From a bacterium (lineage in GTDB: Bacteria; UBA10199; 2-02-FULL-44-16; DYJF01), in contig JBGSNL010000027.1 in the NCBI GenBank assembly GCA_041739675.1, positions 1-15,750 of the forward strand: a DNA stretch of 15,750 bases, given 5' to 3'. This document shows, one piece after another, positions 3,598 to 15,509 of the stretch. Every line of letters starts with the position of its first letter. Position 1 is the stretch's first letter. The notes under the pieces were generated by a model. That model saw only the letters and a program-made list of their open reading frames with translations, had not been told where the DNA came from and made no database searches. The translations under genes and the position numbers were made by a program.

Positions 3598-3611
3598 TAT
3601 TTAGATTCGTC

Positions 3612-3669
3612 CGATAAATCAACGTTAAATCGACGGCGCAGGAGCCGTCGATTTATTGTCGATTTATTG
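3612..3669. repeat. Inverted repeat/hairpin built from 11-bp tandem units
   Basis: TAAATCGACGGC (3626-3637) and GCCGTCGATTTA (3644-3655) form a perfect 12-bp stem with loop GCAGGA. It extends imperfectly to 3612/3669. The right arm contains GTCGATTTATT twice (3647-3668). Confidence 0.8.
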
Positions 3670-3699
3670 TTGACGATTCGCCTTCATATGTCTTATACG
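3670..3699 (+). promoter_or_regulatory. Candidate sigma70-type promoter for the FHA-sigma54 regulator, possibly leaderless
   Basis: TTGACG (3670-3675), 18-bp spacer, TATACG (3694-3699), ending 7 bp before ATG 3707, which has no recognisable SD sequence. Confidence 0.3.
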
Positions 3700-3706
3700 A
3701 CGCGAC

Positions 3707-5329
3707 ATGATTGAGCTCGTGTTCTCCCGCGACGGCAAGCCGTGCCTGCGTCAGCAAGTGGACGAGACCTCGCTGACGATAGGACGCGACACCGACAATC
3801 AAGTCCAGTTGACCGACGAAGATATATCCAGAAAACATCTGAGGATAGAGTGGAAGGACGGAAAATACGTCGTCACCGACTTTTCAAGCAACGGCACTTA
3901 CCTCAATAATCGCCCGATCAAGACGTCCCCACTCAAAGTCGGCGACAGCCTGACCATCGGCCGATGGACCGTGGAAGTTGTGGCCGGGCGGGCGGATACC
4001 AGAAGCACAACAGTCATAGCGCCAAAGCAGCCGACATCCATCCTAAACTTCGATGCGGAGAAAAAATCCATATCTGTGGAGAGGATAAAGCTCACGGTCA
4101 CAACGCCTGATCAGAAAAAGGAAAATTTCACTTTAAGGCGGACCGAGACGGTGATCGGTCAGGCTGAAAGCTGCGACGTGGAGATAAACGATTCATTCAT
4201 ATCAAGGCGCCACTGCAGACTCATCAACAAGGGTAGCCGCATCATGCTCATGGATCTGGGCTCGACCAATGGAACGTACGTCGAGGGCGTGCGAGTCGAT
4301 AACGTCAGCCTTCCTCTCGAAGGCTCGTTCAAGATAGGCAAGAGCACGATCGATTACAAGCTCGACCGCCACTTTGAAATCGTGAGCCCCTCTCTCGAAA
4401 CCTCGCTTGGGCCCATGATCGGCGCAAGCGAAAAGATGCGCGAGATTTTTTCGCTCATCGAAAAGGTGGCACCGTCCGACGCAACGGTTCTTATAACGGG
4501 CGAGAGCGGAACCGGAAAGGACCTGGCCGCTCGCCTTTTGCATCAGATGAGCCACCGCGCCGAAAAGCCATTCATTTCGATCAACTGCGGCGCGATTCCA
4601 GCATCTATTATAGAAAGCCAGCTCTTCGGCCATGAGAAGGGTTCGTTCACGGGGGCGATTGAGCGCATGTCGGGCCTCATCGAGCAGGCGAACGGCGGCA
4701 CACTTTTCCTTGATGAAATTGGCGAGATGCCCCTTGAGCTTCAAACGCGGCTGCTTCAGGTGATCGAAAGCAAGAAAGTCAGGCGCATCGGCGGCAAGGA
4801 AGAGATTGAAGTCGATTTCCGTCTCATAGCCGCCACGAACAAAGAGCTGCAGAGGCTCGCGGCCGACGGGCGTTTCCGCGAGGATCTTTTCTACAGGCTT
4901 TACGTCATCCCCATACACCTCACTCCGCTCAGAGAGCGCGGCGACGATCTGAAAATTCTGGCACAGCGTTTCATAAAGGATCTCTCTGTGCCCCGAGCGA
5001 TGACAAAACTTACCGACGCCGCAATCGAAAAGCTAGCCTCGCATGACTGGCCGGGCAACGTGCGCGAGCTCAAAAATGTCATCCAGCGGGCGATTCTTTT
5101 CTCCACTTCGACCACACTTGATGCAAAAGACATTTCGTATGCGCCGATCGAAACAAAGGCCGCGGGTGATGCGAATCTTGAAAACAAGGAACGCGACACC
5201 ATCATCGCCTCTCTGATAAAGTTCGGCGGCAATCAAACCAAAGCGGCCACCGAATTGGGCATCGCCCGCACAACCCTCTCCGCAAAGGTCCTCAAATACC
5301 AGATCGATGTAAAAAAATTGCAGGGCTGA
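3707..5329 (+). CDS. Sigma54-dependent enhancer-binding protein with two N-terminal FHA domains and a Fis-type HTH
   Basis: FHA1: LTIGRD..ISRKH..SSNGT. FHA2: VIGQ..ISRRH..STNGT. AAA+: [77 protein letters not shown]. Confidence 0.95.
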
Positions 5330-5357
5330 TCCAGAATAATTCATTACTACATAAAAG

Positions 5358-5422
5358 CGATCGAAGATCAGGATTATGATTATGACTAAGATCGAAGATC
5401 CAGGATTAAAGATAGAAGATCA
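5358..5422 (+). repeat. Degenerate 6-7 bp GAT-core tandem repeat array downstream of four-helix-bundle gene A
   Basis: cGATcga aGATca gGATta tGATta tGACta aGATcga aGATcca gGATtaa aGATaga aGATca (about 10 units). Includes the direct repeat GATCGAAGATC(C)AGGATTA at 5359-5376 and 5390-5408. Confidence 0.75.
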
Positions 5423-5755
5423 CCGGAGCTTGTAGAGCATCTTGACCACCTGAAGAAGCTGATCCTGAAGATAAAGAGCATCAGGTTCAGTCATCAGCCT
5501 CAGTGCTAACGCGACATCAATGCAAGATGCCGATTCAGCGGCAGACGCCCTTGCGATTGCAAAAAACCTTGCCCTCTCTCCTACACCTTTCCTCGCATTT
5601 CCCTCAGCAATGTTGAGGAGCACACTTGAAATGGCCCTCTTTAGCTGATCTTCAAGATAATAAGTACCTTTTGGCCATTTGGCCACAATGCCCGGCACCC
5701 TTTTTGCCGCCCCAAGGGCCATCTCGTAACATCTCAGCTTCTGATGATTGAACAT
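5420..5755 (-). CDS. Four-helix-bundle protein A (23S rRNA intervening-sequence protein/Avd-like fold), 111 aa
   Basis: MFNHQKLRCYE...LEDQLKRAISSVLLNIAEG..R....ERARFF.IARASAAE matches the family signature (DQLxRAxxSxxxNIAEG; F-x-IAxxSxxE). Start ATG at 5755 with SD AAGGAGG. Confidence 0.9.
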   Translation of the reverse strand: MFNHQKLRCYEMALGAAKRVPGIVAKWPKGTYYLEDQLKRAISSVLLNIAEGNARKGVGERARFFAIARASAAESASCIDVALALRLMTEPDALYLQDQLLQVVKMLYKLR

Positions 5756-5770
5756 AAAAACCTCCTTATT

Positions 5771-5828
5771 TGTGTTTTTTGGCCTCATGCCTCTCACCCT
5801 CATGGGAGGCATGAGGCCAAAAAACACA
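5771..5828. repeat. Perfect 23-bp inverted repeat (hairpin/cruciform) at the centre of the divergent gene pair
   Basis: TGTGTTTTTTGGCCTCATGCCTC (5771-5793) is the exact reverse complement of GAGGCATGAGGCCAAAAAACACA (5806-5828). The spacer is 12 nt (TCACCCTCATGG); three more pairs are possible (one G-U), leaving a 6-nt loop. Confidence 0.97.
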
Positions 5829-5841
5829 CAGGAGGTATTCC

Positions 5842-6186
5842 ATGAATCATCAGAAGCTGAGATGCTATGAGGTCTTACTAGGTACCGCAAAAAGGTTGCC
5901 GGGCATTGTGGCTAGGATGCCAAGAGGACATAATTATATCGTGGATCAGCTGAGAAGGGCTCTATCCAGTGGGATACTTAATCTATCTGAGGGAAATGGG
6001 AGAACGTCGGCAAAAGAGAGGGCAAGGTTTTTTGACATATCGCTGGCATCCATCGCCGAATCGTCATCGGCTATTGATGTAATGCAGGCGTTCAACTTGA
6101 TCTCAAGACAGGCAGGCGATGAATTCAAATCCCAGCTGAGAATCGCCTATGCCATGATCGTCAATCTCAAGAAATCTGGATTCTGA
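5842..6186 (+). CDS. Four-helix-bundle protein B (23S rRNA IVP/Avd-like fold), 114 aa, paralog of gene A
   Basis: MNHQKLRCYE...DQLRRALSSGILNLSEGNGR...ERARFFDISLASIAE. SD AGGAGG at 5830-5835. Hand alignment to protein A gives 57/109 identical residues. Confidence 0.9.
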   Translation: MNHQKLRCYEVLLGTAKRLPGIVARMPRGHNYIVDQLRRALSSGILNLSEGNGRTSAKERARFFDISLASIAESSSAIDVMQAFNLISRQAGDEFKSQLRIAYAMIVNLKKSGF

Positions 6187-6223
6187 GATCTTAATCCAGG
6201 GCTAGGTCTTTATCTATCTTCTG
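6187..6223 (-). repeat. Short GAT/ATC-core repeat tract downstream of gene B, mirroring the tract after gene A
   Basis: Sense strand after stop B: GATCTTAATCCAGGGCTAGGTCTTTATCTATCTTCTG. Sense strand after stop A: TCTTCTATCTTTAATCCTGGATCTTCGATCTT. Shared core ATCTT(T)AATCC(T/A)GG. Confidence 0.55.
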
Positions 6224-6297
6224 TTCTCTCTGTTTATGCTTGTGAACTTTGTTAATATACTGTATTTACTCAAGATTAAGAAGGTCATGGGGGGTTC

Positions 6298-7164
6298 ATG
6301 TACGAATCATATTGGCTGCTCGATACCAAGCCTTTCGAGAATACGCCTGATCCCCAATTTATCTATAATTCCATGCAGCATGAAGAGGCCCTCATGCGCA
6401 TGGTCTACGCCGCCCACGAACGCAAGGAGGGCGCGCTTTTGACGGGCGAATACGGGAGCGGCAAGACGGTTCTCTCACGCGCGCTCTTAAAAGAACTCAG
6501 CCGCGACAATCTTTACAAAACGGTCCTGATCTTAAACCCCAAGATCACACGGAACGAGTTTCTCAAGGAAATCCTGTTCCAGCTTGGTTCTGCCGAGACC
6601 GGCAAGGACAAACTCGCTCTTCAGCATCAGCTGGCGGACCGCCTGAGCCGCATCGCCGACGAAGGCAAATTCACGGTGATCATAGTGGACGAGGCCCAGG
6701 TTCTTGGGGGCAACGATTTCAACGAGCTGCGCCTTCTTTTGAATTTCCAGAGAAACGACGGATTCCTTTTTACGCTCATCCTTGTCGGGCACACGGAGCT
6801 CCGGAAAAAGATATTCAGCGTGGAGCCCTTGAAGCAGAGGCTCGCCACACGTTTCCACTTGAGTGCACTGGGTGAAGAGGAGACGGCAAAATACATCCTT
6901 CATCGCATGGCGGTTGCCGGAAGAAAAGACGTGGTGTTCGAAGATGATGCGCTGAGGCTTATAAGTCGCGGCTCCGAAGGTATCCCCCGGCGGATCAACA
7001 ACATCTGCGACCACTGCCTTCTCATAGGCTACAGCCGCAAAGCGGAAAAGATCGGCGCCGATATCGCCATGGACGCCTTGAAGGATCTTGATGAATGGCG
7101 CGAAGACGACAAAGTGAGACCGTTCGTCGTGGACAAAACTGTCTCTCTGGAGAAGACGGCCTGA
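6298..7164 (+). CDS. ExeA/GspA-family AAA ATPase, ATPase domain only (copy 1)
   Basis: Family N-terminus MYESYWLLDTKPFENTPDPQF, Walker A GEYGSGKT, Walker B IIVDEAQ, then ELRLLLNFQ, YILHRM and GIPRRINNICD. Confidence 0.9.
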   Translation: MYESYWLLDTKPFENTPDPQFIYNSMQHEEALMRMVYAAHERKEGALLTGEYGSGKTVLSRALLKELSRDNLYKTVLILNPKITRNEFLKEILFQLGSAETGKDKLALQHQLADRLSRIADEGKFTVIIVDEAQVLGGNDFNELRLLLNFQRNDGFLFTLILVGHTELRKKIFSVEPLKQRLATRFHLSALGEEETAKYILHRMAVAGRKDVVFEDDALRLISRGSEGIPRRINNICDHCLLIGYSRKAEKIGADIAMDALKDLDEWREDDKVRPFVVDKTVSLEKTA

Positions 7165-7165
7165 T

Positions 7166-8248
7166 ATGGTGAGAATCGCTCAAATAATGAAGGAGAAGCT
7201 CGCCGCCGCCGGATATGAGACCCAGACGGCAGGGACCTTCAATTTTGTAGAGCTCTATGCCCGCGAGGCTGCCGTCAAGTCAGTGAAGAAAGAGATCCCG
7301 GTTGCAACGGAACCCGATAGCGATCCGGTTGAATATGCCTCCCGGGTTTATTCGGAGGCCGTCTCGGGCGTCCGTGAGACCTTTTCCAAAGCGGCCAACG
7401 ATCTGCCGATAGATTATCACGAAGTAACCTCTTCGGTGGATGCGATACTTCAGGGGATCATCTGCGGAAACGAAAACTTTATCAGCCTGGCCACGGGCCG
7501 TTGTGACGGTGAGGTCGATTATCTTTACTGCCATCCGGTGAATACGGCGATACTTTCTCTCACTGTCGGCATGGATAAGAAAGTCAACATGTCGAAGCTC
7601 CGGGAGCTGGGGGTCGCCGCGTTCCTGCATGACATAGGTATTGCGAAGGTTTCCGATCTCGTGAACAGTGCGGAGCGGTTGAGCGCCGGCGAGCTTGAGG
7701 CGGTGCGAAAGCATCCGGCGTGGGGCCTTGATACTCTGAAAAGGATAGAGGGCATCGGCGACAGCGCATTGAGGGTAGCATATGAGGAGCATGAGCGGCT
7801 TGACGGCTCGGGCTATCCTCACGGCCGTGTTGGAAAAGAGAAGCTGTGCGAGTTTTCGCCGATAGTCTCTGTCGTCGACGTTTTTGAGGCGCTGACGCAT
7901 GCGCGCCCGCATAGGGCCGCTTTGCCGGCGCATGAGGCGTTCAAGAAGATGCTCCGCGACGACGAGGCGGGCAAATACGAATCGGACATTGTGAGGAGGC
8001 TCATAAGTCATGTGGGTCTCTATCCCGTGGGGAGTTGGGTGAAACTTTCGAACGAAGAGGTCGCCAAGGTGGTGGGTATCAACCGCGGTTATCCCTTGAA
8101 ACCCAGGGTAACCGTGATCTTCGACCATAATGGTTGGAAATTGAAGCAGGCGAAGTCCATCGACCTCGTCTCGATGTCGGCGATTTCAATTTTGAGGCCC
8201 GTAAGCGACGAGGAACTGAAAAAATACTGGGAAAAAAGTCCCAGTTAA
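7166..8248 (+). CDS. HD-GYP domain protein (putative cyclic di-nucleotide phosphodiesterase)
   Basis: YCHPVNTA, AFLHDIG, KHPAWG, EEHERLDGSGYP, VDVFEALTHARPHR and the C-terminal YPVGSWVKLSNEEVAKV extension. Confidence 0.92.
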   Translation: MVRIAQIMKEKLAAAGYETQTAGTFNFVELYAREAAVKSVKKEIPVATEPDSDPVEYASRVYSEAVSGVRETFSKAANDLPIDYHEVTSSVDAILQGIICGNENFISLATGRCDGEVDYLYCHPVNTAILSLTVGMDKKVNMSKLRELGVAAFLHDIGIAKVSDLVNSAERLSAGELEAVRKHPAWGLDTLKRIEGIGDSALRVAYEEHERLDGSGYPHGRVGKEKLCEFSPIVSVVDVFEALTHARPHRAALPAHEAFKKMLRDDEAGKYESDIVRRLISHVGLYPVGSWVKLSNEEVAKVVGINRGYPLKPRVTVIFDHNGWKLKQAKSIDLVSMSAISILRPVSDEELKKYWEKSPS

Positions 8249-8277
8249 CAAACCATTTTCCAAAAAAGGGGGAAAAC

Positions 8278-8427
8278 ATGGGTACAATACTGCTTTTGAT
8301 CTTCAGATTCGCATTGGGGTACGATTCCGAGAGTTTTGCGAATTATCAGCTTCTATCGCTGACACTTTCGCTCGACACGATCGCATTTTTGCTTCTGCTC
8401 GCAGTGTTTAAAAAGAAGCAGGCCTAA
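8278..8427 (+). CDS. Small hydrophobic membrane peptide, 49 aa
   Basis: ATG at 8278 after a G-rich SD (AAAGGGGGG). Sequence MGTILLLIFRFALGYDSESFANYQLLSLTLSLDTIAFLLLLAVFKKKQA has hydrophobic segments and a basic tail. Fits the HD-GYP-wza gap. Confidence 0.55.
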   Translation: MGTILLLIFRFALGYDSESFANYQLLSLTLSLDTIAFLLLLAVFKKKQA

Positions 8428-8486
8428 GCGTCGGAATAAAAGTTTTTTTGTTGTGTGCGTGTGAGTTCCCACTTTAGGAGTGGTCT

Positions 8487-9242
8487 ATGAGGAGACATTT
8501 ATTCCTTTGTGCAGCTGTCGTGTGTGCAGCCGCCGTGACGGCATGTTCCTACACGAAGGTGCCGAAATCCTCATCGACATCGGCAAAATCGAACGGGGTC
8601 GAGGCGAAGGAACCCGGTGCTGAAGGATCCTATCCTCAGCTTCCCCCGTACAGGATAAACATTGGCGATGTCCTTGGCGTGTCAGTGTGGAGGGCGAAAG
8701 GGATGGACGTTGAGCGGGATGTGATAGTGAGGCCCGACGGAGTCATTTCTTACCCGCTGGTCGGCGATATTCATGCGATCGGAAAGACCCTGACCGAGCT
8801 CGATGCGGAGCTCACGCGCGCCCTGAGGACGTACATAAAAAATCCGGAAGTGTCGATGGCGATAAAAAGATTCGGCGGAACAAAGGTGATCGTGCTTGGC
8901 GAAGTCAGAAGCCCGGGCGTCTACAGCCCCACGGGACAGGGCAGTGTTTTAGAGGTGATAGCCCTTGCCGGCGGTTTCACGGACGACGGTGTCAGGTCCG
9001 ACACGATCCTTGTCCACGGGGGGCTTGCAAATCCGCAGCCGGTCCGCCTGAATCTGGCGCATGCAATATTGAAGGGAGATCAGAGCCAGAATCCGCCGTT
9101 GCAGCCCAACGACATAGTTTTTGTGCCGAAAAACGCGGCTGCATCCTTTAATTATTATATGAAGCAGTTGACGCCGACGCTTCAGAATTTACTCTTGGGA
9201 ACGTCGGTCTGGGCCGATCTTACAAATCAGACGGTGCATTGA
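8487..9242 (+). CDS. wza: Polysaccharide export lipoprotein (Wza/OPX family, Poly_export + SLBB)
   Basis: Signal peptide with lipobox-like VTAC. Motifs YRINIGDVLGVSVW, VRPDGVISYPLVGDI.A.GKT..EL, VIVLGEVRSPG.Y, ALAGGFT and NPPLQPNDIVFVP. SD AGGAG. Confidence 0.88.
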   Translation: MRRHLFLCAAVVCAAAVTACSYTKVPKSSSTSAKSNGVEAKEPGAEGSYPQLPPYRINIGDVLGVSVWRAKGMDVERDVIVRPDGVISYPLVGDIHAIGKTLTELDAELTRALRTYIKNPEVSMAIKRFGGTKVIVLGEVRSPGVYSPTGQGSVLEVIALAGGFTDDGVRSDTILVHGGLANPQPVRLNLAHAILKGDQSQNPPLQPNDIVFVPKNAAASFNYYMKQLTPTLQNLLLGTSVWADLTNQTVH

Positions 9243-9258
9243 GTTTAACGGGGTCATC

Positions 9259-11235
9259 GTGCAGAGGTCCGAATTACTCAGTCTTTCCGATTACTGGCGG
9301 ATAATGCGCCGCCGGAAAGCGGTTATACTCGCCTCGATGTTCATTATAGGCGGCGTCGTCTTTTATCGAAATATCACAACGCCTCCGACATACCAGACGT
9401 CCACGACAGTGATGGTCGAGGGCGGAAAGTCGCTCGCGACGGGAACGCCCGAGTATTACAATCCGTGGGAAGGCGATTATGTGGATTCGCAGACAAACGT
9501 GATCGGCAGCGCGCCTGTCGCCGAACAGGCGGGAAGATATCTGGGCTGGATCACCGATTCCACGCCTCCCCAGTACGCCGATGAAATCATCGCATATATA
9601 GCCGGGAGCGTTGCGAACGCCGAGAGGATAAGGACCACCAACCTCATCGCGATAACAATAGAGTCGGGCGATCCGCGCGAAGCTGCGGCCATTGCAAATG
9701 CCGTGGCCCACGCCTATCAGGAATGGAGCCTGCAAAAGCGGAACGAGCAAGCTCACTCGGTGAGGGTTTTCGTCGAGCAGCAGCTAATCGATGTGGGGGG
9801 GCGGCTGAAAATTTCTGAAGAGGCGCTCAGAGATTTCAAGGCGTCGTCCGATGTGGCCGGCGCCCTTGCCACGATGCAGCAGCAGCTTGTGTCTCTCCAG
9901 ACGGAATTGGCTTCGCTTCTTGAAGAATATACCGAACAGCATCCGGACGTGATCGAAACGCGGGCGAAGATTGACGAGCTCAGGGCGCAGTTGGCCGAGA
10001 GCCCCGAGCTCGAGATGAAATTCCGTCAACTCAGCCGCGACGTGGAAACAAATTCCTCTCTGTATCAGATGCTCAGACAGCGCTTTGAAGACGCGCGTAT
10101 CGCCGAAGCGGAGAAGGTTAGCGACGTTACGATAGTCAATCCGGCGACCGTTCCGGGCTCGCCCGTTGCTCCACGCGTGAAGCTCAATACAATGATAGGT
10201 CTTGTGGTCGGCCTCCTTCTGGGTCTGGTCATGGCCTTCGTCAAAGAGAACCTCGACACATCCATCGCCACCATAGAGGACGTGGAAGATTTCCTGCAGA
10301 TTCCGATCCTGGGCGTCATTCCCTATATGGAAGCGGAGGTGACGAGGAAGCGCAGATATTCGATCACAAGTTTCTTCGGAATACTGCCGCCGCCGCCGCG
10401 CCTCTCCGTCAAAGATTCGAGAAAGCTTCTGGTCGCACTCGGCGGCGGGACCTCACCGCCCGCGGAGGCATACAAGACACTTCGCACGAATATCCAGTTT
10501 GCCGTATCTCAGAAGAAGAGCAAGCTCATCGCCTTTACAAGTTCCGGGCCGCATGAAGGTAAGACGATCACGGTTGCGAACTGCGCAATTGCGTTTGCCC
10601 AGAGCGGACAGCGCGTTTTGCTTTTCTCCGCGGACTTGAGGCGTGAATTGGTCGCGGATCTCTTCGGAATCCGGACCGAGCCGGGTCTGGCTGAAATCAT
10701 AAGCGGCGACATTGAATGGCGGAAAGCGGTCCGGTCAATTGAAGATCTCATGGTCGGCGATCTGGACACCACAAAGATTTTGGAGACTCCGGGAATCGAC
10801 AATTTATCCATCCTGACCGCGGGCCGTGTGCCTCCAAATCCGGCCGAATTTCTGCAGTCGGACCGCATGAAGGAATTTTTAAAAGAGATCCGCGAGCAGT
10901 TCGATTATGTATTTCTCGATTGTCCGCCGGTTTTACCGGTCAGTGACGCGCTTGTCCTGGCCCCGCAAGTTGACGGCATCATTTTTGTATATCAGTCGGG
11001 TCAGACCGCGCGCGGCGCTCTGAAGCGTGCAAAATCAATGATTTTGGCTTCCGGCGCCACGGTGTTGGGAGTGGTCTTGAACGCCATCAAGGCGCAGGAG
11101 ATGAAGCTCGCGCCGTCATACCGCTACTATGGCGGATACTACGGCGGGAAATACGGTTATGGATACGGCTATGAGAAGGATAAGGAAGAGGGAAAAGACA
11201 AGTGGTATAACTTTTTCAAAAAGGGAAGATCGTGA
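9259..11235 (+). CDS. wzc: Polysaccharide co-polymerase / BY-type tyrosine autokinase (Wzc-like)
   Basis: GTG start. Two TM segments flank a coiled-coil periplasmic region. Motifs AEAYKTLRTNI, Walker A SSGPHEGKT, FSADLRR, PPNPAEFL and Walker B FLDCPP. C-terminal cluster YRYYGGYYGGKYGYGYGY has 9 Tyr. Confidence 0.92.
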   Translation: MQRSELLSLSDYWRIMRRRKAVILASMFIIGGVVFYRNITTPPTYQTSTTVMVEGGKSLATGTPEYYNPWEGDYVDSQTNVIGSAPVAEQAGRYLGWITDSTPPQYADEIIAYIAGSVANAERIRTTNLIAITIESGDPREAAAIANAVAHAYQEWSLQKRNEQAHSVRVFVEQQLIDVGGRLKISEEALRDFKASSDVAGALATMQQQLVSLQTELASLLEEYTEQHPDVIETRAKIDELRAQLAESPELEMKFRQLSRDVETNSSLYQMLRQRFEDARIAEAEKVSDVTIVNPATVPGSPVAPRVKLNTMIGLVVGLLLGLVMAFVKENLDTSIATIEDVEDFLQIPILGVIPYMEAEVTRKRRYSITSFFGILPPPPRLSVKDSRKLLVALGGGTSPPAEAYKTLRTNIQFAVSQKKSKLIAFTSSGPHEGKTITVANCAIAFAQSGQRVLLFSADLRRELVADLFGIRTEPGLAEIISGDIEWRKAVRSIEDLMVGDLDTTKILETPGIDNLSILTAGRVPPNPAEFLQSDRMKEFLKEIREQFDYVFLDCPPVLPVSDALVLAPQVDGIIFVYQSGQTARGALKRAKSMILASGATVLGVVLNAIKAQEMKLAPSYRYYGGYYGGKYGYGYGYEKDKEEGKDKWYNFFKKGRS

Positions 11236-11251
11236 CGAGGCTTGGGAAAAA

Positions 11252-12034
11252 ATGGCGACCTACAGACTGCATTGCCGAGTATCCCCGTATGACTATGACG
11301 CCCAGTGGGCCGCATTCTTCGATAAAAACAACTTAGTTCCTGAAATATATCTCAACAAGCACGCCCTTGACGGCAAGATTGAGGCCGCGCTGGATAAAAT
11401 GGCCGCATGGCTGGATCAAAAGAAAATCCGCCCGTCGATGCACGCCCCATTCGCCTCCAACGATCCCGTTCTCTTCGATTCCATAGCGAGAAACCATGCA
11501 GAGAAGGTAACGGACAAGACGATAGCACTCGTCAGGCGTTTCAACGCAGAGATCGTTGTCTGCCATCCCGTGTTCGAAAAATACAGGAACAGAAAATCCT
11601 ATTCCAAATGGATAGACGAAAATGTTCGCTACTTCGATCACATGGTCGCCCAGACGCGGAAGTCCGGCACTATCGTTGCCGTAGAGAATATCTTCGAGGA
11701 CGGGCCGGATTTCATTCATGATATTCTGTCTGAGGTGCGCTCCGAAAGGCTGAAGTTTTGCCTGGATGTGGGCCACTACAATAAGTATTCAAAAGCGAAT
11801 CTCGCGAAATGGTTCAAGGTTCTGGGAGACAAACTGTGCGAGATCCACGTCCACGACAATTCGGGAAAACATGACGAACATCTGCCGCCGGGTGAGGGGT
11901 TGTTCCCTTTCCCAAAACTCGCGGTTATGCTGCAGAGCCTTGATAAAGATCTCATCATGACACTGGAACCGTTAAACAGGGAGGCCGCCTTGCGTGCGGT
12001 TAAAAACGCGAGGCGTCTCTTCGGTATAAAATGA
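11252..12034 (+). CDS. Sugar-phosphate isomerase/epimerase-like TIM-barrel protein (AP endonuclease 2/xylose isomerase-like family), 260 aa
   Basis: Metal-ligand motifs SMHAPF, VCHP, AVENIFE, CLDVGH, EIHVHDN, DEHLPPGEG and TLEP. Start ATG at 11252 avoids overlap with wzc. Confidence 0.85.
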   Translation: MATYRLHCRVSPYDYDAQWAAFFDKNNLVPEIYLNKHALDGKIEAALDKMAAWLDQKKIRPSMHAPFASNDPVLFDSIARNHAEKVTDKTIALVRRFNAEIVVCHPVFEKYRNRKSYSKWIDENVRYFDHMVAQTRKSGTIVAVENIFEDGPDFIHDILSEVRSERLKFCLDVGHYNKYSKANLAKWFKVLGDKLCEIHVHDNSGKHDEHLPPGEGLFPFPKLAVMLQSLDKDLIMTLEPLNREAALRAVKNARRLFGIK

Positions 12035-12540
12035 CGAACCATGCAAGGCGCTGGTCAATCGCGCTTGGTTATCTGGCCCTGATGTATTGGACCACGTACG
12101 TTATCAACTCAGAGGGGGTCCTTGAAGGCGCAGGTGTGGCTCACGCCGCTTTTTTGGCCGCGTATATAATTGCGGCAATTGCCCTTCTGGTTTTAGGGCT
12201 CGTCAAATTCGGCGTCAAAAACGATTACGCGTGGATCTGCCTTGGGATTATTGTTCTCTTATTGATGATGGCGGTTCTGAATCTTTCCGACCCCAAGGGG
12301 AGGTTGCATTTTCTCGAGTACGGTCTGTTTTTCGTGCTTGTGTACCGCGCCTTGAAGATGCGTGTCTCGGGTTTTACAGCATACGCGTCGGCGATAATTT
12401 TGACCTGTGCAGCGGGGGTTGCAGACGAATTCTTGCAGTCGCTTTACGGCAGAGGCTTCTTCGATATGGCCGATGTCTTGAACAACACGTTCGCGGCATA
12501 TCTTGCCGCAGGCGTAAGTCTCGTATGGGAGAGGTGTTAA
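12031..12540 (+). CDS. VanZ-like family membrane protein
   Basis: About 5 hydrophobic segments with LHFLEYG and GVADEFLQSLYGRGFFDMADVLNN, resembling the VanZ-like H-F-x-x-Y and DE-x-x-Q...R...D...N pattern. Start overlaps the upstream stop. Confidence 0.75.
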   Translation: MTNHARRWSIALGYLALMYWTTYVINSEGVLEGAGVAHAAFLAAYIIAAIALLVLGLVKFGVKNDYAWICLGIIVLLLMMAVLNLSDPKGRLHFLEYGLFFVLVYRALKMRVSGFTAYASAIILTCAAGVADEFLQSLYGRGFFDMADVLNNTFAAYLAAGVSLVWERC

Positions 12541-13356
12541 ATGTACGAACAATACTGGAAACTCACTGAAAAACCGTTCGAGAACACTCCGGATCCGCGC
12601 TTTCTTTTTCGTTCGGCGGAGCATGAGGAGGGGCTCTCAAGACTTCTCTACGCAGTGAAAGAGTCCAAAGGGGCCGCCATGCTCACGGGCGTGTTCGGTT
12701 GCGGAAAAACTCTTTTGGGGCGTTCGATCATGAAGGAGCTGGGAAAAGATTCCTATCGCATGGTCTATATCGGAAACCCGCTGCTTTCGCACGTGGAGCT
12801 CCTGATGGCGGTCGCAACGGGGCTCGGGGTGACGGATCTCCCCACGAAGAAGACCGAGATCCTCACGAACGTGGTGCTCGATTCGCTGGAAAAAGTTCTC
12901 CTGAACAACCGGCGCGATGGAAAGCGGACCGTTGTCCTCATAGACGAGGCGCATATCATAACTGAGCATACGGTCTGGGAAGAGCTGCGTCTTCTCTTAA
13001 ATTTTCAGCTCGATGACGCTTTTCTTCTGACGTTGCTTCTTTTCGGACAACCGGAGCTCAAAAATAACATCACTGCCAACAAGCAGCTTTCGCAGAGAAT
13101 CGCGATACGTTTCCATTTGAGCGGATTCAACGCGGAGGAAGTCGCTCTCTACATCAAACATCGTTTGAGCGTTGTCGGACGGACAGATTGCATGTTCACG
13201 GACGAATCGCTTGCCCTCATCTTTAAGAAATCGGGGGGCATTCCGCGGCGCATAAACCATATCTGCGACATGTGCCTAGTCGCCGGTTTGGGACAGAAGC
13301 TGGGCAGCATAGGGCCCGATCTGGTTCAGGAGGTTGTGGCGGATATGGAAGAATAG
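12541..13356 (+). CDS. ExeA/GspA-family AAA ATPase, ATPase domain only (copy 2)
   Basis: MYEQYWKLTEKPFENTPDPRF, Walker A GVFGCGKT, Walker B VLIDEAH, then ELRLLLNFQ, GQPEL, YIKHRL and GGIPRRINHICD. Confidence 0.92.
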   Translation: MYEQYWKLTEKPFENTPDPRFLFRSAEHEEGLSRLLYAVKESKGAAMLTGVFGCGKTLLGRSIMKELGKDSYRMVYIGNPLLSHVELLMAVATGLGVTDLPTKKTEILTNVVLDSLEKVLLNNRRDGKRTVVLIDEAHIITEHTVWEELRLLLNFQLDDAFLLTLLLFGQPELKNNITANKQLSQRIAIRFHLSGFNAEEVALYIKHRLSVVGRTDCMFTDESLALIFKKSGGIPRRINHICDMCLVAGLGQKLGSIGPDLVQEVVADMEE

Positions 13357-13376
13357 TGAATTCGGAGCTTTGATAT

Positions 13377-15509
13377 ATGAAGATACAGACAAGGATACTG
13401 CTGGCCCTTATCGTCGTCTTTTCTCTGTTTGCTATTTTTGCAGTGTGGAGCGGACTGTCCGAAATCCGGAAAGAGAAGACGGTCTTCGAGCAGAAGGTGG
13501 CCGAAAAGGGACATCTCTTTGACGAGGTGATGGAGCTGAAAGGGGCGTCCAGCAGATCGCAGGCCACCGATTATACCTTTTGGGACGAGATGGTCCGGTT
13601 TGCGGAAAGAAAGTTGGGCAAAGAATGGGGGGTTGAAAACATCGAGGCGAGCCTTTCGGGCTTCAAGGACAACGCGGCGTGGGTATATGATACGGACATT
13701 TCCCTCGTCTATTCGGTGAATAATCTGGGCAGCGGGACCATAAGGGATATCCCGATTTCAGCCGATGCCGTCAGACAGGTCTTCGCCGACAGCCGCTTTT
13801 GCCACTTCTTTGCAATGACCGATCTCGGCGTAATGGAGATCTTCGGCGCCACGATTCACCCCACGGGCGATCCCAGAAGGCTGACATCTCCAAGAGGGTA
13901 TTTTTTCGTCGGCACTCTTTGGGATGAAAGCTACATCGGTTACTTCTCGCGCATCTTCGAAGGTGAGGTGAAAATTTTGCCCGTGGAAGAGGCGAACGGG
14001 GCTTCCGAAAATCTTAAGGAAGGGACGATCTATTTCACAAAGACGCTCTACAATTGGGACAAGACCCCGCTTGTCGACGTCCGCGTGGAAAGCCATTCGG
14101 AGAGTTTGCGCGTGATTTACGCGGCGTTCAAACAGCGGCTTATCGTGTTCGGTGTCTTTGCTCTCGTCATAATGTTCATAATCGTGTTCACGCTTTTACG
14201 GTGGGTCAACAGGCCTCTCAGAATGATCTGGGACAGTCTCGAAAACGACAGGATAGACAAAATAGTCCCTCTCGAGAAAGAATCCACCGAGTACGGGATG
14301 ATCGCAAAATTGATAAGGCGTTCCTTCGAGCAGAAAGAGAGCCTCGAGAGCGAAATAGCGTTCAGGAAACTTGCAGAGGAGCAGCTCAGATATTCGAAGG
14401 ATCAGATGGAACTCCTCTATCATTTGGTCCCCAGCGCCATCTTCACGGTCGATAAGAACCGCCGAATCACCAGCTGGAACAACATGGCCGCCGAGATGAC
14501 CGGCTACGAGGCCTCCGAGATCATAGGGCGCGAGTGCACGGTCTTTGCTGAGGCGCCCTGCAAGGAAAAATGCGGTCTTTACTCCGACGACATAACCAAA
14601 CCCATAAGGGGCAGGGAATGCATTATAAGAAGAAAAGACGGGCAGCTGAGGTTTGTCTTAAAGAACGGCGACTATCTGAAGGATCCGGAGGGGAAGATCA
14701 TAGGCGGAATTGAAAGCTTTGAGGATATAACCGAGCGGAGACACGCTGAGAAGAAGCTGGAGGAATGGAGCAAGACCCTTGAGGAGAGCGTCAGGATCAG
14801 AACCGAAGAGCTCCAAAAATCCCAGGAGAAGCTGGCGCGTTCGGAGAAACTGGCCCTCATCGGGCAGCTCTCGTCGCAGGTCTCTCACGAACTTAGAACC
14901 CCGCTCACGGCCATCAAAAACGCCGCCTATCTCATTAATATGCAGATGGACAGTGGCAAGACCGACAAGATCGCTGAATATGTCGATCTGATCAGCAAGG
15001 AAGTGGACGTCACGACCCAGGTCATTTCAAACACTTTGGGTTTCGCGAAACGCAAGCCGCTTGAGAGGAAGGAGAGCGACATCAACACCGTCCTTCGCGA
15101 AAGTCTCCAGGTATCGGTTGTGCCGGCGAACATCAGTGTGAAGCCCCTCTTCAATGAGGCGCTGCCGCATCTGAATGTCGATCCCGTGCAGATCCGCCAG
15201 GTGTTTGACAATATCATAAAAAACGCCGTGGATGCGATGCCGGAAGGCGGCGAGCTGGAGGTCAAGCTCACCTCCGACATGACTTATCTGACGGCGGAGT
15301 TCAAAGATACGGGCGTCGGTATTTCAAAAGAAAATATGAATAAAATATTCGACCCCCTGTTTTCAACTTCGCCCCGCGGGACGGGGCTGGGGCTTCCCGT
15401 GTGCCAGCAGATAGTGGAGTCACATGGGGGCCTGATAGATGTTGAAAGCGTGGAGGGGAAGGGGGCTGTTTTCAAGATTAAATTACCGCTTCGGCAGTCT
15501 GCGGTGTGA
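13377..15509 (+). CDS. Membrane sensor histidine kinase (TM - CHASE4-like - TM - PAS - HisKA - HATPase_c)
   Basis: DYTFWDE (CHASE4-like) between two TM helices. PAS: AIFTVD..RITSWN..AEMTGY..SEIIG...DITER. H-box SHELRTPL, N-box NIIKNAVDA, G1 DTGVGI, F IFDPLFST, G2 GTGLGL. Confidence 0.93.
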   Translation: MKIQTRILLALIVVFSLFAIFAVWSGLSEIRKEKTVFEQKVAEKGHLFDEVMELKGASSRSQATDYTFWDEMVRFAERKLGKEWGVENIEASLSGFKDNAAWVYDTDISLVYSVNNLGSGTIRDIPISADAVRQVFADSRFCHFFAMTDLGVMEIFGATIHPTGDPRRLTSPRGYFFVGTLWDESYIGYFSRIFEGEVKILPVEEANGASENLKEGTIYFTKTLYNWDKTPLVDVRVESHSESLRVIYAAFKQRLIVFGVFALVIMFIIVFTLLRWVNRPLRMIWDSLENDRIDKIVPLEKESTEYGMIAKLIRRSFEQKESLESEIAFRKLAEEQLRYSKDQMELLYHLVPSAIFTVDKNRRITSWNNMAAEMTGYEASEIIGRECTVFAEAPCKEKCGLYSDDITKPIRGRECIIRRKDGQLRFVLKNGDYLKDPEGKIIGGIESFEDITERRHAEKKLEEWSKTLEESVRIRTEELQKSQEKLARSEKLALIGQLSSQVSHELRTPLTAIKNAAYLINMQMDSGKTDKIAEYVDLISKEVDVTTQVISNTLGFAKRKPLERKESDINTVLRESLQVSVVPANISVKPLFNEALPHLNVDPVQIRQVFDNIIKNAVDAMPEGGELEVKLTSDMTYLTAEFKDTGVGISKENMNKIFDPLFSTSPRGTGLGLPVCQQIVESHGGLIDVESVEGKGAVFKIKLPLRQSAV

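Follow-up and report, generated by a model that had tools for sequence, protein, structure and literature searches.

Proteins of the PF05635 family form a very large group with solved structures whose function is, to our knowledge, established only within diversity-generating retroelements (DGRs). Among elements with hairpins, those of the IS200/IS605 and REP/RAYT groups transpose as single strands, carry a hairpin with a strand-asymmetric feature and leave no visible target duplication, while viroid-like elements and Obelisks are rod-like ambisense RNAs and flip/flop hairpin telomeres occur with two loop orientations. The closest design is that of the ORF-bearing intervening sequences (IVSs) of 23S rRNA genes (S23p/PF05635). 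The relevant parts of two reports describe these as selfish and patchily distributed, with a long stem and a ribosome-binding site unfavourable for translation (PMC4990558; 10.1101/2024.02.27.582315), and the first of them has IVSs cut out by RNase III (PMC4990558). For the DGR protein Avd, the relevant portion of its published account describes binding to an RNA stem-loop and a role as cofactor of the reverse transcriptase (10.1101/2023.10.23.563531).

We analyzed a 15,750-nucleotide stretch of bacterial DNA (the window) containing a cassette of about 0.88 kb, an imperfect palindrome in the order tract, gene A (minus strand), central hairpin, gene B (plus strand), tract (Table 1). The cassette shares protein family and fold with the ORF-bearing IVSs and, as far as the partial accounts above go, the other features listed there. 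Unlike an IVS, it lies outside rRNA genes, dispersed over non-homologous intergenic sites; it has two divergent paralogs where an IVS has one ORF, and its perfect repeat is central rather than terminal. It resembles Avd in having basic proteins and, as judged from a structure model of protein A, the same fold (PDB 4DWL and 8UB7, TM 0.77-0.81), but identity is 10-12% and no reverse transcriptase, template or variable repeat is present in or near the cassette. The nearest relatives are single PF05635 genes between mirror-image hexamer or heptamer tracts, of which we found no description in the literature; these share the RATCNN tract type and the intergenic position, but have one gene, with a tract upstream and its complement downstream, no central hairpin, and a separate clade of their own.

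With IS200/IS605 and REP/RAYT elements the cassette has in common a strand-asymmetric hairpin, the lack of a visible target duplication and the single-stranded circle that we propose below, but it encodes no HUH transposase and its hairpin is central. With viroid-like and Obelisk RNAs and flip/flop telomeres it shares a size of about 0.9 kb, a rod fold, genes on both strands and two loop orientations; unlike the RNAs, it is integrated in chromosomal contigs and present in DNA sequencing runs, and its arms are only about 70% complementary. Filled and empty alleles at three orthologous sites are as expected of an insertion sequence, but a transposase is not encoded, and both genes show selection (dN/dS about 0.15), whereas MITE and REP sequences have no selected coding capacity. 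The cassette fits none of the definitions that we tested (IVS, DGR, IS, MITE, viroid-like RNA), and an element that carries genes but disperses with no transposase, integrase or reverse transcriptase belongs to no family tested. It is apparently new as an element; its parts and nearest design derive from ORF-bearing IVSs. An earlier reading of the window made from sequence alone (the sequence-only reading) knew of no description of this architecture, and our full-text literature search agreed, finding no account of paired genes with a central hairpin or of dispersed PF05635 cassettes, with supplements and most subscription journals beyond its reach.

Organization of the cassette

The anatomy proposed by the sequence-only reading (divergent genes, perfect 23-bp arms, Shine-Dalgarno sequences and end tracts) was confirmed by gene coordinates and a repeat scan, and recounting gave its values for A/B identity (57/109) and GC (413/900) again. 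The low GC that it noted holds here (0.46, against 0.53 for the genome) but is not general, since another subfamily has 0.54. The arms pair perfectly and an AGGAGG adjoins each; when either strand folds, each AGGAGG is predicted to pair with the complement of the other gene's AGGAGG. Folding predictions gave z = -10.2 for the central hairpin as DNA and z = -17.6 for the whole 883-nt block as an RNA rod. An inverted repeat of 236 nt at 71% runs across genes A and B, and hexamer-type tracts lie downstream of both stop codons, with an inverted match between the two end tracts of only 24 nt at 71%. The source genome has nine perfect inverted repeats whose arms measure at least 17 bp, and six of these are cassettes.

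Table 1. Positions of the cassette features and of the adjoining host genes in the window
Feature	Position	Strand	Basis or remark
FHA-domain sigma-54 activator, host flank outside element	3707..5329	+	profile search; radical SAM gene next in congener
A-side repeat tract	5353..5419	-	degenerate RATCNN hexamers on minus strand
Gene A (111 aa), A-type four-helix-bundle protein of net charge +7	5420..5755	-	PF05635/TIGR02436 profiles and structure model
Shine-Dalgarno-like AGGAGG of gene A	5761..5766	-	sequence and fold
Left arm of central hairpin, 23 bp	5771..5793	.	inverted-repeat scan
12-nt loop	5794..5805	.	minus strand reads C…TGA; either orientation occurs across family
Right arm of central hairpin, 23 bp	5806..5828	.	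inverted-repeat scan
Shine-Dalgarno-like AGGAGG of gene B	5830..5835	+	sequence
Gene B (114 aa), B-type four-helix-bundle protein of net charge +8	5842..6186	+	PF05635/TIGR02436 profiles and structure model
B-side repeat tract	6187..6235	+	right element end ~6231-6235
ExeA-like AAA ATPase, host flank outside element	6298..7164	+	profile search; mannose-1-phosphate guanylyltransferase-like gene precedes in two relatives

The left end of the element, at 5353-5354, is the same in a copy from a congener (L079) and in a contig with another flank. At the right end, host sequence shared with the congener begins at about 6231, and one contig has non-element DNA before 6235. A fold-back assembly artefact, against which the sequence-only reading had argued, is excluded because contigs from independent samples bridge each element junction. 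We found no rRNA match in 5200-6400, where the flanks are protein-coding genes, no Rfam family at threshold (the hairpin gave sub-threshold matches only), no direct repeat of the template/variable type differing at adenines in 4800-6800, and no excess of promoters or terminators.

The two proteins

Both proteins exceed the cut-offs of PF05635 (33.8 bits) and TIGR02436 (24 bits), A with 74.4 and 67.9 bits and B with 51.2 and 54.6 bits, as the family assignment made from the sequence had anticipated. PF05635 is the sole Pfam match of both cassette ORFs; no transposase or recombinase is encoded. In a structure search run with the model of A, the best agreement was with 2GSC, the Xcc0516 protein (TM 0.86-0.88), and 2RLD also matched; Avd was more distant by this model. 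B is modelled as four helices with a pLDDT of 92.8. Each type keeps its own set of residues. Among pairs with dS of 0.02-1, A had a dN/dS of 0.148 over 37 pairs and B one of 0.158 over 34, and every pair was below 1, which indicates that both genes are under purifying selection. A pseudogene-like copy, which the sequence-only reading had named as evidence against its proposal, is thus not present.

Copies and distribution

The source genome (G000; 1.91 Mb, 94.6% complete) has 20 PF05635 matches, all from such cassettes. Fourteen of them form seven divergent pairs, with the hairpin intact in six; five are halves at the ends of contigs broken at the hairpin, and in the last the hairpin is kept and gene A is reduced to a short remnant. 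This amounts to about 11 elements in at least three subfamilies, located at unrelated housekeeping loci with no recurrent neighbour. Two sister copies of the window element, at 94.8% and 96.9% identity, have other flanks. The repeats break short-read assemblies of carrier genomes and probably misjoin them as well.

The sequence-only reading had suggested scanning for divergent pairs with a central inverted repeat elsewhere, and these occur both in other genomes and in metagenomes. Judged by coordinates, pairs are present in at least 11 other genomes among 41 searched, and 40 stretches were taken for comparison. A profile of B matched in 16 of 93 genomes of the phylum, belonging to 4 of 24 families, and was not found in the other 77. 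Among 80 metagenome loci kept of 260, which overlap the genome set, 58 have a divergent A, 2 lack one, another 18 are too close to the end of their contig and 2 went unscored, so that A stands beside 58 of the 60 scorable B genes. A genome scan (79 of 357 loci kept) gave further pairs in records labelled by their submitters as Bdellovibrio sp., Oligoflexia, Myxococcales and delta proteobacterium. At its 34 most distant loci the gene stands alone, and inspection by eye placed the majority between mirror-image hexamer tracts. In a tree, one branch (SH-aLRT 94) splits 42 pair proteins from 38 single genes. No match was found in viral contigs, in plasmids searched with protein B or in phages searched with protein A.

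Single PF05635 genes in Verrucomicrobiota (L159-L195) occupy a small number of conserved positions between co-oriented genes, with mirror-image tracts on either side.

Filled and empty sites

We compared the source genome with a relative of the same genus (G001). At three sites both flanks are present and the element is absent in one of the two genomes: L051 is empty in the source genome, where the flanks abut at C10:8560; the site of the second element of L050 is empty there at C65:7936-7959; and the element at C31:7085 has an empty site in the relative. Three further sites have one flank only, or flanks split over two contigs, and one site is filled in both species. No target-site duplication is visible at the empty sites, where the flanks are only 66-80% identical. 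Many copies, together with absence at matching sites in a close relative, are the behaviour of a mobile element, and we consider it very probable that the cassette is one, in keeping with the self-contained mobile module that the sequence-only reading had suggested. Movement appears to be slow or past, since the closest copies differ at dS 0.11-0.25, both window junctions are occupied in strains from other studies, and one site is filled in both species.

The genes flanking 26 scored sites, called from rough ORFs (9 were unscored), point in/in at 9, away/in at 7, away/away at 6 and in/away at 4. Every combination occurs, and an obligate read-through context was rejected. Deleted copies are frequent. 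Directly after the hutU stop codon, the relative has an internally deleted element (L078:1122) and the source genome a solo tract of another subfamily (C11:20582).

Flanks of the window copy

The sequence-only reading placed the cassette between two unrelated host loci and proposed looking in relatives for an empty site between the activator and exeA genes. No such site was found, and both genes have other neighbours in relatives. In the congener an AmmeMemoRadiSam radical SAM gene starts at most about 30 nt after the sigma-54 activator, and in the source genome the same radical SAM gene follows a B half at the start of contig C24. The exeA-like gene is preceded in both the congener and G018 by a divergent mannose-1-phosphate guanylyltransferase-like gene, which tblastn did not find in the source genome. 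Each window junction is real in independent samples, element depth was doubled in the best run, and no contig in the sequencing runs examined spans both flanks. By synteny in relatives, the flanks belong to two different insertion sites. With the doubled depth and the missing spanning contig, this means that the window contig probably joins two element copies, which either recombined with each other or were misassembled across a near-identical repeat.

The hairpin and exchange between genes A and B

To the hairpins of 36 intact pairs and of one pair at a contig end we added 14 loci, which gave a set of 51; duplicates and four copies without a hairpin were excluded. At every one of the first 22 positions the arms pair in 41-50 of 50 hairpins, with wide variation in the arm sequence itself. 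The loop is closed by C·A on one strand in 50 of the 51, and position 11 is G in all 33 oriented 12-nt loops; as the orientation is itself set by C1 and A12, G11 is what remains independent in the C…GA motif. The motif points towards B in 31 cases and away in 19. A tree of 36 leaves requires a minimum of 10 changes and shuffled orientations do not require more, so orientation is not clustered; in metagenomes the two orientations number 24:23, with 3 others. Sequencing runs X5 and X8 each contain both, but in X8 the flipped contig examined has 14 differences in 74 bases and does not establish flipping at the same locus. The invertible module of the sequence-only reading is borne out for the loop, which inverts relative to the genes, but not for inversion of the whole cassette at one site. 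Three hairpins of the source genome (C31:4427-4484, C49:5771-5828 and C72:3510-3559) carry a nested flip: set against sister copies, their inner six loop bases are turned round with respect to the closing mismatch.

At fourfold sites, the A and B genes of one element agree at 570 of 996 positions (57%), against 6845 of 21768 (31%) in comparisons with distant elements and 35% with distant elements of the same genome. The excess is present in 36 of 36 elements and declines outwards (67, 53 and 47%). At the level of sequence comparison, these sites establish that A and B exchange sequence within each element; given this exchange, the 52% identity that the sequence-only reading held against a recent duplication is no proof of independent evolution. 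An AU test of A versus B monophyly gave no rejection (p 0.17 and 0.685). Since A is not rejected as a clade, conversion between A and B is partial, and it is the fourfold-site test that carries the claim of exchange.

The pertinent part of one report describes template switching at inverted repeats as a passive process that homogenises arms and inverts spacers (PMC8604942). As far as that account goes, it can act at any inverted repeat, so equal arms and loop flips point to copying at the DNA level and need no free intermediate. Pairing of an arm with its gene's own 3' tract was rejected, because across 78 elements the own tract ranked no better than others. There are two exceptions, L058 and L267, with long arms similar to the B tract's complement (z -3.5 and -3.0).

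End tracts

Of 50 elements examined for the position of the A tract, 26 have it solely on the A side, 8 solely beyond the B tract and reversed, and 3 in both places; 13 were unscored. The plain split arrangement is therefore the rule (26 of 37 scored elements). A Fisher test of placement gave p = 0.036, a value in which related elements are not independent. The eight elements with the tract only behind B belong to two subfamilies and four genomes; in all eight the A side has no A tract, and the moved tract ends near the A stop. Direct repeats of the tract-junction sequence, 24-105 nt long and consisting of tract sequence, bracket 5 of 37 elements, as is also seen in C25, and L290 has the mirror arrangement of a repeated tract junction. 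The inverted match between an element's two tracts has p <= 0.01 in 7 of 37. Tracts at either end or at both are as expected if a circle or concatemer opens at different points. The circular forms that the sequence-only reading proposed to look for would have B, tracts and A joined head-to-tail; no contig with this junction was present among the metagenome loci scanned or in 8 sequencing runs. The sequencing runs listed as carriers include no RNA run.

Solo tracts without genes, some of them palindromic, occur in the source genome at C34:10381-10519, C79:10090-10200, C37:12170-12242, C31:52406, C11:20589-20671 and C25:57475, and are possibly footprints or non-autonomous units. In L009 (C53:10714-11375), L080, L081 and L160, tract sequence replaces the hairpin and the 5' parts of both genes, in the first three in the order reversed B tract, then A tract. 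These four loci suggest that tracts get written into the hairpin site.

Mechanism and alternative explanations

We infer a circle, the DNA nature of the intermediate and a role for the proteins, and we give about an even chance to a mobile element with a rod-folding, joined-end, single-stranded DNA intermediate that is bound by A and B and processed by host enzymes. The strand would fold to a rod, closed at one tip by the central hairpin and at the other by the joined tracts. Copying with template switches would keep the arms equal, flip the loop and partly convert A and B. The basic proteins, likely pentameric rings by analogy with solved relatives and perhaps mixed, would bind and protect the strand and recognise the loop, leaving the chemistry to host replication and repair enzymes. 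On integration, the circle or concatemer would open at variable points of the tract junction. Within read-through transcripts both ribosome-binding sites would be masked by the hairpin, and the genes would stay mostly silent until it is opened.

A dedicated partner enzyme was sought among PF00078 and PF01797 matches and in the ORFs beside elements, and within that scope was rejected. The source genome has no match to the reverse transcriptase family PF00078, nor do 6 of the 12 pair-bearing genomes, and association across 41 genomes had p = 0.28; PF01797 (Y1/HUH) is in 78 of 93 genomes, was not found in two carriers and does not follow the element's distribution. Of integrase-family and Y1 matches the source genome has two each, all outside the element, and ORFs flanking elements share no recurrent enzyme family, reverse transcriptase included. 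These results bear on a route through RNA, which we think rather unlikely: a read-through rod transcript released by RNase III, with the Avd-like A and B as cofactors of a reverse transcriptase supplied in trans. It would draw on the modelled fold that A shares with Avd and the IVS protein, the strong predicted RNA rod, the nearest single-gene relatives between mirror-image tracts and, from published accounts as far as they bear on this, the precedents of Avd on an RNA stem-loop (10.1101/2023.10.23.563531, PMC10053308) and of IVS excision by RNase III (PMC4990558). It is hard to reconcile with the carriers that have no PF00078 match, with the 6 sites, of 26 scored, whose two flanking genes are both directed away, or with G·U pairs, which show no strand bias by gene (183 vs 147, p = 0.054) or by loop (165 vs 165). 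The missing reverse transcriptase in half of the 12 carriers and the lack of G·U bias favour a DNA intermediate.

Re-insertion beside remnants is a real alternative to a circle, given the solo tracts, the reused sites and the lack of a junction contig. The cassette would then spread passively as linear DNA, through host recombination, repair of hairpin breaks and DNA uptake, and odd tract arrangements would come from such re-insertion and from deletions. The hutU site (solo tract in one species, deleted element in the other) and an element sitting in the remnant of an older A gene fit this account, but tract number is kept while place is changed in 8 of 8 elements, in two subfamilies and four genomes the end of the moved tract falls close to the A stop, and a purely passive cassette leaves the conserved loop motif and the selection on both genes unexplained; we think this route, too, rather unlikely. 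That selection, the fixed A- and B-specific residues, the absolute pairing, as we would call it, of A with B (58 of 60 scorable metagenome B genes) and the age of some sites, one being filled in both species, might instead reflect a benefit to the host, with the cassette a regulator, defence or addiction pair switched by the hairpin and kept by selection at the cell level. About 11 copies at unrelated housekeeping loci without a recurrent neighbour, the 77 of 93 genomes in which it was not found and the frequent deleted copies make this very unlikely.

Returning to the single-stranded DNA intermediate, a bolder form of it, which we advance tentatively, would be a new mobile class: a 0.9-kb ambisense, rod-folding single-stranded circle encoding just two Avd-like ring proteins, which would assemble on the hairpin tip and drive copying and integration, through host enzymes or an unrecognised activity of their own. 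If this were true, the large PF05635 family would gain a function, and the arrival of IVS-type elements at new sites would be explained. Since the compact unit combines defined ends and empty sites with a conserved loop motif and two paralogs of distinct function, mobility, binding and intermediates are directly testable.

Other observations

The element at L001 (C72:2996-3158 of the source genome) lies directly against what is left of the 3' part of an older A gene, one that belongs to another subfamily. L006 and L050, from different subfamilies and two species, share one short hairpin-like repeat just past the A stop, which may be REP-like. A separate repeated hairpin with 13-bp arms, unrelated to the element, occurs in the source genome at C36:24-64, C36:7963-8001 and C37:2135-2166, and heptamer tandem tracts with no adjoining detected PF05635 gene lie at C1:16189, at C64:32046 and at the ends of C12 and C87.

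Elsewhere in the window, a 130-aa ORF without a Pfam match occupies 1863-2252 on the minus strand, and a small cluster of palindromic repeats lies at 3610-3680 between the divergent malic enzyme and activator genes. In 6298-15509, two ExeA-like ATPase paralogs (47% identical) surround polysaccharide export, chain-length, HD and VanZ-like genes, and this gene order is kept in both G001 and G018.
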